Positions 44,656-53,362 of a stretch of DNA of 64,000 nt are shown one piece after another (the stretch's first letter is position 1; each line of letters opens with the position of its first letter). This stretch comes from Psilocybe cubensis (Eukaryota). The stretch is from the NCBI GenBank assembly GCA_017499595.2, contig CM039002.1, positions 1,488,001 to 1,552,000 on the forward strand, given 5' to 3'. A program made the position numbers and the translations under genes. The notes under the pieces were generated by a model. It ran no database searches. It had not been told where the DNA came from and worked only from the letters and a program-made list of their open reading frames with translations.

Positions 44656-47508
44656 ATGGCAGGTACAGGTCTTCCTTTAATTCCGTGGCCGCTTCGTTAC
44701 GTGGCGCACAGCTTTTCTCAATTACTTATATGATGGGCTTTGGTAGAAAATCTCAATTTATCAAGTCCAACTTCCAACGGGCCCAATTCGCCCGCACAGG
44801 GTGTCGCCTCAACATCAGGTGTCAACTCAGGCCCGCATAGGAGTAATAGCAACGTCTCGAGGTCGAGATTCCAACTTATGCGCCAGAAAACACGAATGAT
44901 TATGGAGCCCCCACATAAATTAGGAGAAACACCCACAGTAATGCAGAGTCTGAAAGCAATTTTATGTGCCTCTTGTAAGTATAATGACTTTTATGATTCA
45001 GAATCATACTCATTATTTACAGGGCTTAATGTTCTTCTCATATTTATCCCCGTATCGGTTTGTCGAACGAATTGTTAATGCAATATGACTTGTATACTTA
45101 CCCTATGGGTTTGATGATGACAGTGGGCGTTGCATTTCGCACTACCGCATTCTTTTGCCAACAGAGATACCATAATTTTCGTTTGTGAGTGGCACGCCTT
45201 TCATTGATCGACTCTGAATCCTCATTTGTTGCATATTAGTTTCGTTTTTGGCCATTATACCCTTAGCAAAAGTGGGTCCTAGTACGATTGTTGATACCCA
45301 ATTCGCTCATTTAGAGTCGACTTATTGTCAAGTTGTTGGGATTTGCTACTGAAGAACTTTCGCTAAGAGTTGGGCAGACGTTAGCTGGACTTCTCAACGC
45401 AACATTGGTGAGCCGTATCCTCAGGGTTTCTTTTAACTTGAAATAACGTAATCTCTTCTACTAGGGCAATGCGTAAGCTTTCTTGTTCGCAAATAGATAC
45501 TGATACATTTCTCACTATTTGCTTCAGCGTAGAACTTATCGTCGCTGTAAGCAAGGCGGCCTTTTTGTGGGATAATGTGACTGAAGTACAGAAAATATCT
45601 AGATCATTGCCTTGGTTCAATGTGAACTTCGTGTGGTTCAGGCGTCGTGTAAGTTGATGATTTTTTACTACGTCATGATGTTCTCGAAGAAGACTGCCAA
45701 ATCGAAACACGATCGTTTTTACTTTGTCATGTGTTACTGTCAAACGTGTGCTAATGTTTCTATTTTATGCTAATAGTGGTGGGATCCATCCTTAGTAATC
45801 TGCGTAAGCGCCCAACTGTCGCGCCTATTTCCTGATCGATGGATTAACCCTTTTGTCTTTCTTAGTTCTTGTTCTCGGGATGTGCTTCTTTGCCGGCGGC
45901 ATGAAGTACTCTGAACAAGGTTTCGGAATAAGTGCGTGTGTTTTTTTCCCTGGGATAGCCGCCCAAGCTTATGGGGAATCTGTGATAGGCGCCGTCCAAT
46001 TAAATTCATCCCTATTGACAATTAGTGTCATTGCTGTCCTTCTCCCTGCCGCTTTCCACTTTGCTGCGGACCCAGCGCTCTCAGATGACCAAGAAAAACA
46101 TGATATCTTGGCAGTTAGTCATGGCGTGAGTTATTGTTGTTTCTTCAAGTATCAATTACCATCTGAATATTACAACGATAGGTCGCCGTTATACTTCTGA
46201 TAAGTAAGCGCCCCATTGCTGCATAGTACTTTCATTGTAGTTGACTGATTGATTAACTATAAAACAGTCTACGGTGCATATCTTAGTTTCCAGCTATACT
46301 CCCATACTGCACTGTATCAAGACAAAGGGAAACACACCATTGTCAGCACTGGTTATGACTCGCCTAAGTTCAGGATGCAAGGCTTAAAAAATTTCCGCCA
46401 CCGTCACGATGACGTACATAGTACTGATATCGAATCGACTGCACAAAGACTTGGTGGCCCAGCATCTGTAGAGAGTAGTACAACTTTACACAATGGAGGA
46501 CCGCACATACAACAATTCGGTCTTGCAAGTCCTAATGGTAACAACTTGAATGTCGCTGCTGTAGAAAAGGCCCAGGAAAATGTAGAGGAGGAAGAGGAAA
46601 AGCCTTCTCTAAGCATCGTCGTCACTGTCGGCCTGTTAATAACCGTCACTATTGTAAGCTACTTGCATTGGTCCGTCAAAGTAATGACTAATAATATCTG
46701 GTCAACCAGTTGGTCGCGGTTACTGCTGAATGGTTGGTTGATTCTATAGACGGCATGACGAGCAACGGAAAAATCTCCAAAGAATTCGTCGGTATGATTC
46801 TGCTGCCCATTGTAGGCAACGCAGCAGGTCAGCTTCATCATGATTACGTTCAAGCAAACACCAAGGCTAACAGTTCATCGAATAGAGCACGTAACTGCAG
46901 TTACCGTGTCTGTTAAGGATAAATTGAACCTCAGTATTGGCGTCGCCGTCGGTTCCAGCATCGTGAGTACAGGGTGAATCATACCATAATACCTTCAGTA
47001 AACTAATGATTGTTCTTCATTGAATAGCAAATTGCACTCTTCGTCATTCCGTGCGTTTTATCCTCTGTATTAATGAAAGGGGTCTAATGAGCTTACTCTA
47101 CTTGCAGTTTCATTGTTGTTTTAGGGTGGATCCTTGGGAAACCAATGACCTTGCTGTTCGATCCTTACGAATCTGTGACCATGTTTCTGGCAGGTGTGTT
47201 GGGCTCGAGTAATTAGTAATTCACTGTCTCATCTCTCCTTCCCAGTTCTTACAGTGAACTACGTTGTTCAAGATGGCAAATCAAATTGGCTAGAGGGCTT
47301 TCTTCTTATGGGTAAGCTTTATAGCATTTCGTCTTATTTCAATAAAACTCCTTTGTTCATCCTACTCTATAGGTCTGTACTTTATCTTGGCAGTTACCTT
47401 TTGGTTCTATCCTGGTATGATTTCTTTTAACGCCGGGTTTTTGAAGTATCACTGAGAGATGTGCTCCAATTAGGCTCCGATCCTTTTGGGCTCCTTGATA
47501 AATGCTGA
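44656..47508 (+). CDS. VCX1: Vacuolar Ca2+/H+ exchanger (CAX family)
   Basis: LNVLLIFIP, FLAIIPLAK, ATEELSLRVGQTLAGLLNATL|GNA|VELIVA, GSILSNL, ILLPIVGNAA|EH, GVAVGSSI|QIALFVIP, DGKSNWLEG; many short exons. Confidence 0.92.
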
Positions 47509-47770
47509 AAATCTTGACATATATTTATTCCCCAAACCTTGCCCCATCTTGTTACCCTATTCGCATAACGACCATTCAGGCGAACATACTGTAGTAAACC
47601 AAGGGTATCCAAATTCATGTATAACGACATAGCACACAAACGTATAGTTTTGTTACTCGCAGATGATATACTTACTTTTCCATTATACCCATGTATTTTT
47701 AATATTTGTCATAGATTTCTTGTTCAATTCATCTTCATATAAACTTCCAAATGAGAAAGACAAAAAAAAG

Positions 47771-50700
47771 TCACAATTTTGCTTTTGCAGCAGAATCTTC
47801 AAGGGTCACTGCAGCAGCAGCAAGAGCAATCGTGTTACGCTCCTTTACTTTCGCGGCTATAAAACATCAGAGTTCAGCGTCAAAGAACCGAGTTGGTTGG
47901 GTGGGCTTTTACTTACTGAAGATAACCTTCTGGCCTTCTTTCCACATTTCTGTAACAATGGTTTCGCCAGGGTACACAACACCGGCAAAGCTTAGATTGC
48001 CTCATTAGACGAAACGAAGAGTGGCTGGTAAGGTTTAAGGCTGCGTACCGAACTTTGATATCTTTGTAAGGCCCAAAAGCTTTCAAGACATGCTTGCCCG
48101 CTATCCCCATTGAGCACAGCCCATGAAGAATGGGTTGGTCAAAGCCGCCAATGGCCGCAAACTCAGGAAGGATCTAAAGAAAACATCGTCAAGCCCATGC
48201 AGTGGTGGTATGGAACCAATGAAACCTACATGAAGAGGGTTAGAATCTCCACTTAGGCTGTGTTCATGATTCCTATCAGTAACGAGGTTTCGGAGACGCA
48301 TATACAAGGAGAAACTGACCGGTAGAGAGCGGCTTGGGATGTGCTAGTCTTCTCCTCAATTACAGCGTCTGGGCTGCGTTTGGGTGGTGTGTTGGCAGCA
48401 GAAGCAGCCCCACGATCTGGTATTATTAACGAAGTATAAGACCAATAGAACCAACGCTATGATGGCATGGATTCGTCTGACCGTTTCCATTACGTTTCCC
48501 ACCAAAGCCGCCAGCTCCTCGAATGAACACCGTTGACTGATTCTCAAAGATCAGTTCACCAGTATTTTTGTCCCTTGTTTCGATTATTGATGTAACCGCA
48601 GCTGCTTTGCCCTTGTCAAGGACCTCCAAGATTCTGTGCATTCCAAATTTATGAATAAGTGACGTGTGATGAAATGAGGGATAACTGTGAGCGACCTAGC
48701 CTCACTAACGAGTTCCCCAGATGTTGGAATTGGCCCCTTGATATTCAGGTACTGCTCTCCGTGCAACAGTTTGGCCTGTGAGATGAAACCAGAGTTAGAT
48801 CCCTCTACTAGCAGATATAAAAGTGGGAGCGCACAGGGTTGAAGTTAGGCAGCCAGTCAAGCGGGAGTGCTGCACTGCAGGCAAACTGGGGAATGACGCC
48901 GAACGTGGGCAAAGCGGAGAACTCGTCGTCTCCTTCAAAGGTCCATTTAAGCTCTTTCTCTGTAGCACCTATTCCAAGGTTGTAGAGAATCACGTCACGC
49001 TGTGAGATTTTGTGGTTAGCATAACGCTCTGGTGCGGGAAACAGTGTCTTGAACCTCAGTGTATGAATAGGGGACAGGATCTGCCACCTCTTTCTTCGCA
49101 TCTCGTACGAGTTGAGAGTCCTCTGGATCAGAGAAGGCATTTGGGTCTTTGAAGGAAGTCATTATGCTGTCAATCGGTCGTTAAAAGGCAAGGTAGTAGT
49201 TCGACGTTCAATGTTCAACCGTCCAGAAAGCGGGGAACGGATTCTGAGAAGAAAATCACATGCCAATTCCACCGATGACGCTCATCCAGAAACGTCTGAT
49301 TGCTGGAGTCTTAGACGTTGTGAGGTTCCGGCGCACGCATGGTTAAAAAAGTTTTTCACGAGATATCATTGATGGGAAGTGTCAGTAAGAGTGTTCGCCT
49401 CACTCAAAGTAATTTTATTATTTCCATACTGTACATCATTGTTCGGTAGGGGGTTGTATTGCATGTAGGAACCAGAGAACGATAACATTGGGATGATGCA
49501 TATTATACAAATAGAACAGAATATTGATAAAGGGTATGGATAGATATAATTACAGTTTCGCCTTGACAGCGTCGCCCTTGTTCCCAAAGTTCTCCACAAG
49601 CTAGTAAGATCATGTCAGTGACATTGCAAATCTGGTTAAAAATGCGACTAATACCTGTTGAATAGCTTCTTGTGTAGATGATGGATTAGTTGCGCGACCA
49701 TCATCTAAAAACATTTTTGTCAGAGATATTAGAAATGGTAAATGGGAAGAGGGCCTACCGAAGTTGGTGATATTACTCCACTTCGCGAAGACATCTTCGA
49801 TGGTATATGGCTTGTTTGTAGGGAAACCATATCCACCAGATCTCTGCCAACGTGTCTGAGCTGCCCATCCACCAAGGATTTCAAACAAGTCTCCGGTTGT
49901 TGATTCATTGTCTATGAGCAGGTCGCCGTCAACCTTTGGAAAAAAAAATGGAATGAGAGATTAAATAATACCTTTGCTGCTCAAGTATCCAACGATAGGA
50001 GCGATGAAGTCAGGCTAATAGATTCCTTAGAACTGATTCTTATAACTTTATTGCTGAATTTTCAAACCTTGAAAGCATCAACCATATCTTGGGGCCTGCA
50101 AAGTTTTTTTTATTTAATATAACGTCTTGACTTCAGAAATAAAATAACATACCAGATAGTGCTGGTCATGGCAGTACCAGCAGAGGGAGCAATTGCGTTG
50201 GCCAGAATGTTATACTTCTTGCCCTCAATTGCCAGAGTGCGGGTAAGACCAGTGATTCCGGCTTTTGCAGTTGAATACTATGGATGTTTCATCAGTCAGT
50301 GAGTTGACAGGAAAAAGCCAAAATTATTACGTTTGCTTGTCCGAAGTTACCGTCTAGGAAAGGCGTCAGGCGTGAACTGATAATCCAGAAAACAAAACGT
50401 ACAAATTCCAACTTGGGAGCAGGTAGTTACGATGCGTCCGTATTTTTGTTTTTGGAAGATAGGCCAGACGGCTTTAGCACACTAACAATTGATAAATATG
50501 ACATGTTCCCAAAAGGAATCAGTGGAGAAATACTTTGTAGGTTCCACTGTAAACCTAGGTGAGCACGCTAGTCATGAATATGTATAACTTTAAGCACGGA
50601 CCGAAGATGGACGGCAAGAACGATGTCCCACTCTTGCTCAGTCATAGCTTGGAAAGACTTGTCGCGCAAAATACCGGCGTTGGCAATGAGAACATGGACA

Positions 50701-52412
50701 GATCCAAACTTCTCCAAGGCGACCTGCACAATCTTCTCGGCATCTTCAACAGAGCACACGGCGGCAGCGGCCTTTCCACCGGCTATACGATGCCGTTGAC
50801 GAAAGAAAATTTTGTAAAGATAAAGGACTGCTTACCCTTGACAATTTCATCAACGACAGCGCCAGCTGCGTTGGCGTTGACATCGTTGACAACAACGTTG
50901 GCACCAAGCTTGGCATACATCAGAGCATATGCACGTCCCAGACCAGCTCCAGCTCCAGTGATGATGACAGTCTGTCCATCGAAACGAACGGCAGGAGATG
51001 CCTGAACGTTAGGAGGGAGTTTCTTCGCGGCCTCTAGTTTACCCTGTGGTGAGAGAGATCAGTATATAGATATTTTCCCTAAACCAGGGGAAATACCAGA
51101 GAGTCGACATCGGTCACGGCAGTTGGGCTATGATGTCATAGGTTAGACATATCTAGGCGATAAAACGGAAGGCGTACTAATATGGCTTGCTGAAGTCTGT
51201 CACTTCGTCCCATTTGGCTTTCACCTAATAAGAAAATCAGATGCACTAAGTCAATACTAATAGAATAATTACTTACAGCTGAAGGAGTAAAGCTATCATC
51301 AGTCTTGAAGATAGCACCGTTGCTCCTCTCCCATCGCACTTCAGCAATGAAGCCAGCCCCGACCTCGAATATTTTGCCGGAAGCATCGGGTCCGTCAGGG
51401 TGGGAAATAGCAGCAACGAAAGGTGCAACATAATCAGGCTACGATTTGCGTGAATATATGAAATGTGGAAGAGGATATAGGACGCACGCTAAGATTAGCC
51501 AACATTTCAGGAGGCATGATGGTTTCGGTCATGGCTGAAGCGGCCATCTATCAAAGAAGATTGGTCAAGTTGGATTCGCTAAACGCAGATATTGAAATGT
51601 GAAGAAGGACATACAGGAGCAATGACAGTAGATTTGATGTTATATTTAGCACCTTCACGAGCGAGCGTTTTGGTGAATGCAACCAGCGCCATCTTGGCCG
51701 CGCTATAGTTCGCCTGGCCGAAATTGCCTAATGATATTGATATACATATTAAAAAAATGAACCGCAGAATGTCAAAGTAAATGAAGAGCGCACCGTACAA
51801 ACCAGCAGCGCTAGCGGTGTTGATGACACGGCCAAACTTTTGCTTGCGGAAGAGGGGCCAGGCAGCTTTAGTGCACGCGAAAGCACCCTTCAGGTGGACC
51901 TCGGTAATCTGATCCCATTCCTTGTCAGACATGTTCTTGAATCTGAAGAACATTTAGTGTTAGGTTCAGATGCGCACTCTAGTTCAGACTGACCCCTTGT
52001 CTCTCAGGATACCGGCGTTGTTAATGAGAATAGTGACGGTTCCGAACGCGTCTACGGCGCTCTTGATAATGGCGGCTCCATCTGACACAGACGAAGTGTT
52101 GGCAACGGCCTTGCCTCCAGCTAAAGACCCGAGATCAGTGACTTGGACACAAAGCGGGTATTCTTAAATCTACCCACCGGCGACAATCTCATCGACAACC
52201 TTCTGCGCAGCGGCAGCGTTGAAATCGTTCACGACGACATTGGCGCCTCGAGAAGCAAAAAGGAGTGAGTACCTAGAATCAAACGCAGAACAACATCAGC
52301 CTCTCTTGTTCCAGCTGGAAGGGTCCAAATTATAGAGGAATACGTACGCCTTTCCAAGTCCTCCGCCAGCACCGGTAACAACGACTGTATGGCCTTTGAA
52401 AGAAGCAGACAT
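47771..52412 (-). CDS. FOX2: Peroxisomal multifunctional beta-oxidation enzyme type 2 (two SDR dehydrogenase domains plus hydratase 2); full-length fused form
   Basis: [27 protein letters not shown] and [66 protein letters not shown]-terminal AKL* PTS1. Joining the two halves needs the 387-nt intron 49167-49553. Confidence 0.9.
49550..52412 (-). CDS. Predicted short FOX2 product: dehydrogenase A+B only, ending in its own PTS1 (KAKL*)
   Basis: Exon 49600-49550 read without the next splice gives [25 protein letters not shown] follows at 49419-49414. Confidence 0.6.
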
Positions 52413-52505
52413 ATTATGATTATTTTTGAGGAAGGACAGGAGAGATGATGTGGAGAAACGGGGTGAAGATTCAGTTTATATCCGGACGCCGAACATGTGA
52501 AAAGC

Positions 52506-52511
52506 CCGAGG
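52506..52511. promoter_or_regulatory. CCGAGG core, candidate FarA/Ctf1-type fatty-acid response element upstream of FOX2
   Basis: About 95 nt upstream of the FOX2 ATG. The motif is known from ascomycete fatty-acid catabolism promoters; a hexamer can occur by chance. Confidence 0.3.
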
Positions 52512-53362
52512 AAATGACCGGCTATTGATAACGTAATGGGCTCATCCGTCTGGGTGGTTACCGACGACCGTAGCTCCCGTTCCGTCTTCACATGAAGGAA
52601 GGCGGGTTCTGTCTTCTTGACATTAAGCAATGGTCATAGGAGAGACATAAATATTTTCGTATCGGAGCGACTCGCGCTATGCGTAATATACAGGCGTAAG
52701 AACAAAGGACTGTACTATATCATGCATAGCATGAGAGTGAAGAGGCAGGTTTCGTGACGAAAGAGAGAGGGTCAAGGTGTCAAGGCAAGGGTACGTAAAA
52801 GATTCCCCATATTGGAGACATCGGCTCTGGCAGCAGAACAAATGAAAAATAACCATATTTAAATGCACTTTCAGGAATCAGTTGAAAAAAATGAATTTAA
52901 GAAAAAAAGATAATGGTACAGAGTAACAAAAGAAAACGAGAAACGACAGAGTGTAAGAGAGCGTCGAGTCGAGGGCGTAATTCATAACAGAGTATATGTG
53001 ACCCAGAGTGAGCATAGAGTTATGGCGGCATGCGTGGGCATTAGAGTGCGGTTCGGTGAGAGTCGGTGAGTCTAGGGTTTTTGTTGACTGGAAATAAATG
53101 GGGAGGAAGAAAGGGGGAAAGGAAGGGGTTATGGCGATAGCAATAAAAAAGCAGATGATATCAAGACCGAGGTAAATGCAACGTCCGGTGAGATGCCGAA
53201 TCAGACTGGATGGTATGCAGATGGAAAACACCAAAGAAGAGAAGAGATATGAGATATGGATGATCGACGAGATGGTTGGATATTTCAAGTACAGATGCTA
53301 GGACACGTCGGAATCCGAAATGGGGGAGTGAATGTGCACAAAGTACAAAGCCTGAAGACGGC

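Follow-up and report, generated by a model that had tools for sequence, protein, structure and literature searches.

We examined the FOX2/MFE-2 locus of Psilocybe cubensis in a stretch of 64,000 nt (GenBank assembly GCA_017499595.2, contig CM039002.1, positions 1,488,001 to 1,552,000 of the forward strand), hereafter the window, and found that it very probably consists of two tandem, independently transcribed genes which stem from an old fission of FOX2/MFE-2 and are common to the Agaricales, rather than of one gene with a splice switch. Fox2/MFE-2 is the textbook fused enzyme of peroxisomal beta-oxidation in fungi. An earlier reading of the sequence (the original prediction) had treated the locus as one gene, in which a 387-nt intron overlapping an internal stop codon was either spliced, giving the full fused enzyme, or cut short by polyadenylation, giving a dehydrogenase-only protein. 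The locus yields separate mature mRNAs and exact gene models, and the tail of the first protein, the head of the second and a motif in the spacer between the genes are conserved over the Agaricales. Positions below are those of the window, and both genes lie on the minus strand.

Gene models were obtained by an exact-match spliced walk of the window against two public P. cubensis proteins, P0121 and P0001, and are further supported by Pfam domains and RNA contigs. Gene 1 (49550..52412, minus strand; 20 exons) encodes the dehydrogenase half and corresponds letter for letter to P0121, a protein of 600 aa with the database name ketoreductase-domain protein. Gene 2 (47771..49162, minus strand; 9 exons) encodes, equally letter for letter, the 304-aa P0001, named MaoC-like protein, which is a stand-alone enoyl-CoA hydratase 2 with its own ATG and its own type 1 peroxisomal targeting signal (PTS1). 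In Pfam, P0121 matched adh_short in two stretches (E 3.3e-89), corresponding to two short-chain dehydrogenase domains, and P0001 matched MFE-2_hydrat-2_N (PF22622, E 2.4e-56) and MaoC_dehydratas (PF01575, E 8.3e-31). The hydratase-2 domains are therefore carried by a different protein from the dehydrogenase domains, and since both proteins match the window exactly, public annotation already treats the locus as two genes. PTS1 tripeptides follow the consensus type [SAC][KRH][LM], and both proteins end in AKL.

Direct reading of the minus strand confirmed the internal targeting signal. Gene 1 closes with GGC GAC GCT GTC AAG GCG AAA CTG TAA, that is, GDAVKAKL and a stop at 49552-49550 (AKL codons with TAA, 49550..49561, minus strand), and the second reading frame closes with GAT TCT GCT GCA AAA GCA AAA TTG TGA, that is, DSAAKAKL and a stop at 47773-47771, so that the two C-termini share KAKL as had been claimed. 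Around the internal stop the window agrees with two genomic runs (X3, X4) and two RNA runs (X1, X2), the nearest listed difference being at 49543. The G of the Leu codon CTG and the TAA form, from 49553, the donor-like hexamer GTAATT (49548..49553, minus strand), which shares bases with the stop; an acceptor-like AG (49167..49168, minus strand) lies 4 nt 5' of the hydratase ATG (49162-49160), which opens MTSFKDP. When 49554 was mechanically joined to 49166 the frame stayed open without a stop. The letters of both proposed splice sites and the open frame are thus present, while their use found no support, as RNA contigs run unspliced through 49553 and 49167. The interval between stop and ATG measures 387 nt, as predicted, and its great length relative to local introns was borne out: the two gene models have 27 introns, each of 49-75 nt, so that an intron of 387 nt, more than five times the longest of them, would fall far outside the local range. 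An in-frame TAA also stands six codons upstream of the hydratase ATG. Stop-codon read-through was considered as another way of joining the two parts and rejected: the frame past the TAA reaches another stop after 37 codons (open reading frame (ORF) 49436-49549), though the ATG shares that frame.

Transcript evidence comes from assembled contigs. X1 and X2 are contig sets from one study and were taken as RNA-derived because they skip introns with GT..AG ends (no listed run is registered as RNA), and X3 and X4 are collinear genomic contigs. Record 3 of X1 (2008 nt, 18 joints) has the introns of gene 1 removed, passes the proposed donor without a break (49395-49600) and ends at 49395, which is 19 nt beyond an AATAAA hexamer (49419-49414) that had been noted earlier. 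Record 2 of X1 (1139 nt) has the introns of gene 2 removed, is unbroken over 49055-49377 through the proposed acceptor and carries a 5' leader to 49377. X2 showed a like layout with a wider gap (~49218-49448, ~230 nt): its hydratase contig (record 4) is collinear over 49055-49217, and its gene 1 contig stops earlier, at ~49448 as judged from bin depth. At the contig level, neither run merges the two genes into one record spanning both ORFs. Altogether 26 joints were reported (15 displayed and 11 not displayed), which equals the 18 + 8 expected from the gene models; the 19 + 8 introns give 26 because the two introns flanking a 13-nt microexon of gene 1 (50534..50546, minus strand), whose letters occur in contigs of both X1 and X2 between 50478 and 50602, count as one joint with letters between. 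The tally therefore leaves no room for a joint from 49553 to 49167, and none was seen in the assembled contigs of either RNA run. A single polypeptide or mRNA with all three domains, as defines Fox2/MFE-2, was accordingly not found here: the stop intervenes, each gene has its own mRNA contig and the spacer is bridged by no joint. The original prediction had itself named complete gene fission as the alternative if junction reads were missing, and this is the outcome that the contigs gave, with room for a rare isoform. A transcript end had been expected near 49380-49420 and the contig end at 49395 falls there. The transcript for the dehydrogenase-only protein thus ends inside the interval as envisaged, and the interval is a spacer rather than an intron.

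The split arrangement was then found to be widespread among relatives. A search with one hydratase exon gave 835 significant matches; among the 120 listed, at least 46 (an approximate count) were stand-alone hydratases of 286-324 aa and at least 20 were proteins of 813-906 aa. In an alignment of 20 hydratases (A1), 19 open with M, mostly as M..FK.P.AF, and the C-termini are AKL (16), ARL (2), PKL (1) and AKF (1). Fifteen dehydrogenase-only proteins were fetched (547-663 aa), from Psilocybe, Cyathus, Panaeolus, Tephrocybe, Desarmillaria, Cyclocybe, Mycena and transcript-sized contigs, two of them being from P. cubensis. All 15 end in [AS][KR]L (AKL in 12, SKL in 2, SRL in 1). The two halves carry neighbouring locus tags in Tephrocybe rancida (004278/004279) and in Psilocybe cf. 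subviscida (004922/004923). Besides, a scan of metagenome contigs gave 80 loci, for which a strict regular-expression classing that left 62 unclassified was replaced by a later classification. Fourteen genomic loci among them repeat the layout of the window, namely NF...K[AS]KL, a stop, a spacer of 70-1176 nt and a hydratase ATG; counts out of 15 below refer to these 14 and the window. The PTS1 tail with its stop was present in all 14, and conservation of this combination exceeds chance. Such is not the case for the features on which splicing would depend. Of the 15 loci, 9 have a GT over the stop, exactly those whose Leu codon ends in G, and 6 lack it; 4 (the window, L025, L061 and L078) would permit an in-frame, stop-free splice from this GT to an AG close to the ATG and 11 would not; and 5 have no in-frame GT..AG pair at all. 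The stop-overlapping GT, the in-frame splice and AATAAA-like hexamers (present in 7 of 14 spacers, not conserved) do not exceed chance. Thus, of the expected conservation of an (S/A)KL-stop overlapping a donor, the tail and stop held and the donor and frame did not. Four hydratase-only transcript contigs of relatives (L001, L003, L004 and L005) have in-frame stops in their 5' leaders of ~31-140 nt. In L036 (1-2000) the place of the dehydrogenase gene upstream of a split-type hydratase is taken by an unrelated ORF on the opposite strand (207 aa, 688-1311), and no dehydrogenase homology was found within 1.9 kb upstream of the hydratase; the pair seems to be separated in that organism. A 301-aa stand-alone hydratase was also seen in Hygrophoropsis (Boletales), so the fission event may be older than the Agaricales.

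Truly fused proteins (Phanerochaete P0093, Jaapia P0098, Phlebia, P0145 and P0159) have a continuous acidic linker with neither a stop nor an M, and ~38 of the 80 loci are of this fused type, with the linker inside one ORF. An origin of the spacer from an ancestral intron was therefore rejected. Among the Agaricales, database models of 813-906 aa named "multifunctional beta-oxidation protein" bridge the two halves (P0004-P0019, P0053, P0066, P0071, P0073, P0084, P0102, P0133, P0138 and P0155). The junctions of 17 such fused Agaricales models were mutually inconsistent: some skip both tail and head, the hydratase M stays in frame in 8 of the 17, VKAKL is retained in one, and some include untranslated or out-of-frame text. 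A tree of the dehydrogenase part (588 columns) was built from 41 rows, comprising 14 split, 17 fused-model and 10 truly fused rows (5 proteins and 5 locus ORFs); the selection omitted some fetched proteins, among them P0008, P0016, P0067, P0122 and P0135. The 31 Agaricales rows formed one clade with a Shimodaira-Hasegawa-like approximate likelihood ratio (SH-aLRT) support of 97, excluding all 10 truly fused rows. Inside this clade split and fused-model labels interleave, even within a genus, needing 9-10 changes. For example, a split row paired with a fused-model row within Panaeolus (SH-aLRT 100), for Desarmillaria and Armillaria (99), for the Logan-derived split protein P0124 and Laccaria (99), for Tephrocybe and Lyophyllum (88) and for Cyathus and Crucibulum (87). 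Because their junctions are inconsistent and they interleave with split rows, the fused Agaricales models are probably annotation artefacts in which neighbouring genes were mis-joined. Among the database matches listed, no transcript-sized protein with a fused junction of the Agaricales type was found. The simplest reading of the tree would be a single fission at the base of the Agaricales clade, the stop having been bridged afterwards by gene callers in some genomes. One further sequence deserves mention: L002 (54-2741), an intron-free contig of 4656 nt, encodes a truly fused enzyme of 895 aa with the linker NFDNKGSSDSDPYADPEDSE. It shares 78-82% identity with Jaapia and Agaricales proteins alike, so that percent identity could not place it, and the tree puts it outside the split clade.

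The intergenic spacer (49163..49549, minus strand, 387 nt) includes, besides the gap in RNA cover, the 3' untranslated region (UTR) of gene 1 as well as the promoter or leader of gene 2. As assembled, the 3' UTR occupies 49395..49549 (minus strand), with the AATAAA inside it, and the hydratase mRNA contig starts at 49377 in X1 or 49217 in X2. Homologous spacers have a median pairwise identity of 0.41 and are otherwise unalignable; their lengths show no modulo 3 bias over the 15 split loci. Rfam gave no match in 49000-49700. The sole conserved spacer element is GCATGTGATT (49254..49263, minus strand), located 100 nt upstream of the hydratase ATG and recognized by k-mer sharing among spacers. 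Its k-mers alone are shared by 12-13 of 14 spacers (the next best k-mer by 6 of 14), and the 10-mer itself occurs in 16 of the 80 loci. The split loci carry the 7-mer CATGTGA at -18 to -100 from the hydratase ATG, 14 of the 15 in forward and one (L039) in reversed orientation. A motif scan also placed two copies in the upstream region of gene 1 (52494..52594, minus strand), one forward relative to the gene (52594-52588) and one reversed (52500-52494). The window as a whole has 7 matches, 11.2 being expected by chance, and 3 of the 7 lie upstream of these two genes. Among loci with at least 398 nt available, CATGTGA was present upstream of the dehydrogenase ATG in 4 of 10, mostly reversed (background 0.157 per kb). 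The motif is E-box-like, also reads ATG-TGA, and lies within the 5' leader of both the X1 hydratase contig and the L004 transcript. We infer that it is a putative E-box-type transcription-factor site, shared by the two genes and co-regulating them; it may resemble the yeast inositol/choline element. A role as a start-stop element in the leader is the weaker alternative and is disfavoured because reversed copies exist.

A few observations concern the surroundings of these genes and their public models. A third RNA contig, record 1 of X1 (2233 nt, depth 398), lies at 47500-47748 in the orientation opposite to that of the other two X1 contigs. It borders on the 3' end of the hydratase gene, extends beyond the compared stretch and probably represents an adjacent transcript. 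The hydratase RNA contig stops at ~47761, at a T-run which varies in length in X3 and X4. A 547-aa NCBI model from P. cubensis (P0122) is without the 13-nt microexon and several other exons of gene 1, whereas the 600-aa UniRef entry P0121 is exact.

How far could these data be accommodated by a single gene? If polyadenylation within a 387-nt intron gave the dehydrogenase-only PTS1 protein and splicing of 49553 to 49167 gave the fused MFE-2, both as significant products, one would expect the join in the window to be in frame and free of stops and a transcript to end near the AATAAA, as is the case, and L025, L061 and L078 permit a comparable join. This explanation nevertheless appears very unlikely, as mature contigs of both X1 and X2 traverse the two sites without a joint, the interval is out of proportion to the introns around it, and among the 15 loci the GT is absent in 6 and the in-frame join impossible in 11. 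Also, the hydratase has its own ATG, and in relatives it is expressed from monocistronic transcripts whose leaders contain in-frame stops; in L036 there is no dehydrogenase gene upstream to be spliced from, and fused proteins of the Agaricales type are missing at transcript size among the matches listed. It is less probable still, indeed barely conceivable, that the stop is a sequencing or assembly error or that a fused FOX2 is decaying here as a pseudogene. No evidence in favour of such an artefact was found; two genomic and two RNA runs agree around the stop, stop and tail recur in 14 other loci and 15 proteins, and both halves have intact domains and are expressed.

Several points weigh against two fully independent genes. 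The RNA comes from one study, contig ends are limits of assembly rather than mapped poly(A) or cap sites, and rare variants are lost on assembly, so that a minor isoform arising by splicing or read-through may exist. Only 17 nt separate the ends of the two X1 mRNA contigs (49377 and 49395), and some transcription may therefore cross the entire spacer. Spacers measured from stop to hydratase ATG are as short as 70 nt (L043:300-520) and 116 nt (L061:890-1120), leaving little room for a separate terminator and promoter, which suggests that in some lineages the transcripts may overlap or be joint. Some of the 15 loci are related to one another and thus not independent (L030 and L050 are near-identical, and the spacers of L030, L048 and L056 are 78-89% alike), and the adjacency of the halves in 14 of 15 genomic split loci could reflect coupled expression. 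Separate import and action of the two halves are, moreover, predictions. These points bear most directly on the possibility that expression is coupled without fusion, that is, that read-through past the gene 1 poly(A) site produces bicistronic RNAs from which the hydratase is translated or by which its promoter is tuned, with the ATG-TGA of GCATGTGATT as a leader start-stop. We regard this as unlikely, though it may coexist with the two-gene arrangement. It is favoured by the near contact of the X1 contigs, by the motif inside two 5' leaders, by spacers of 70-145 nt in L043, L061 and L020, by the retained adjacency and by the description of polycistronic transcripts for Agaricomycetes in PMC4503453. 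However, the contigs stay unmerged in both runs; the X1 contig depths differ (237.6 vs 165.5, contig depth being a poor measure); hydratase transcripts of three relatives start downstream of the motif position, with leaders of 31-57 nt and no motif; and the reversed orientation of the motif in L039, and of most copies upstream of the dehydrogenase gene, fits a DNA-binding site and not an AUG-stop. Neither hydratase, peroxisomes nor oxidation is mentioned in the main text of PMC4503453. A stronger version seems a shade more doubtful: the halves would stay adjacent because some transcripts cross the gene 1 poly(A) site with both ORFs, the stop-overlapping GT would be spliced to the AG wherever the frame allows, in this species too, rebuilding full-length MFE-2, and GCATGTGATT would tune the downstream cistron.

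The two-gene reading suggests the following history and mode of action. The break in the ancestral polypeptide would have fallen exactly in the linker that joins dehydrogenase domain B to the hydratase-2 domain. Gene 1 would have gained a new C-terminal tail, ...VKAKL, serving as PTS1, and gene 2 a new start codon and N-terminal head while keeping the ancestral PTS1. The 387-nt interval would then combine the polyadenylation region of gene 1 with the promoter or leader of gene 2, GCATGTGATT included. Each half may be imported separately by Pex5 via its own AKL; the hydratase half would convert enoyl-CoA to 3-hydroxyacyl-CoA and the dehydrogenase half would oxidise the product (steps 2 and 3 of peroxisomal beta-oxidation). 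The motif that they share and their continued adjacency may keep both genes co-regulated. The stop-overlapping GT and the in-frame AG appear to be coincidences of codon choice.

The locus can be compared with several known systems. With Fox2p/MFE-2 of yeasts, ascomycetes and non-Agaricales basidiomycetes it has in common the order dehydrogenase A, dehydrogenase B, hydratase 2, a C-terminal PTS1 and, by inference, the role in beta-oxidation, and the Psilocybe halves are ~78-82% identical to truly fused agaricomycete proteins. Unlike Fox2p/MFE-2, the Psilocybe enzyme is divided over two genes at the linker between domain B and the hydratase, with a new PTS1 tail and a new start and head; true fusions (Jaapia P0098, Phanerochaete P0093 and the transcript L002) have an acidic linker without a stop at this place. 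Glycolytic enzymes of Ustilago maydis reportedly carry cryptic PTS1s that are exposed by alternative splicing or stop-codon read-through, so that one gene gives two isoforms. The Psilocybe PTS1 is similarly placed where RNA processing could in principle choose the C-terminus. It differs in that no joining product was found in the contigs (a rare isoform being possible), relatives do not preserve the splice sites and frame, and what lies downstream is a separate gene. In function, the locus comes closest to the MAOC-1/DHS-28 pair of Caenorhabditis elegans, peroxisomal beta-oxidation genes in which hydratase-2 and dehydrogenase activities also reside on separate gene products. DHS-28 has one dehydrogenase domain and an SCP2 domain, and the nematode genes are not known to form a tandem pair. 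In contrast, the Psilocybe halves are adjacent and the dehydrogenase half has two domains, and the nematode split is an independent animal event. According to PMC9352923, maoc-1 is the enoyl-CoA hydratase and dhs-28 a 3-hydroxyacyl-CoA dehydrogenase. Polycistronic units of Agaricomycetes resemble the locus in having same-strand neighbours and a short spacer, and RNA cover here almost bridges that spacer; the difference is that no single RNA record holds both ORFs, and the pair goes unmentioned in the main text of PMC4503453. We found no description of FOX2/MFE-2 fission in Agaricales in the literature searched, which did not extend to subscription journals and supplements.

As to its meaning, little weight can be placed on a GT overlapping a stop together with an in-frame AG if neither RNA nor conservation supports them. 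Many Agaricales models of 813-906 aa are probably mis-joined across the stop, which affects orthology tables, domain-architecture counts and metabolic models. The conserved spacer motif offers a testable handle on the co-regulation of both genes. If the two-gene reading holds, the dehydrogenase half had to acquire a new PTS1 at fission, making the locus a natural experiment on gene fission, the birth of targeting signals and the control of stoichiometry, and a whole mushroom order would run this pathway with two separately imported halves.

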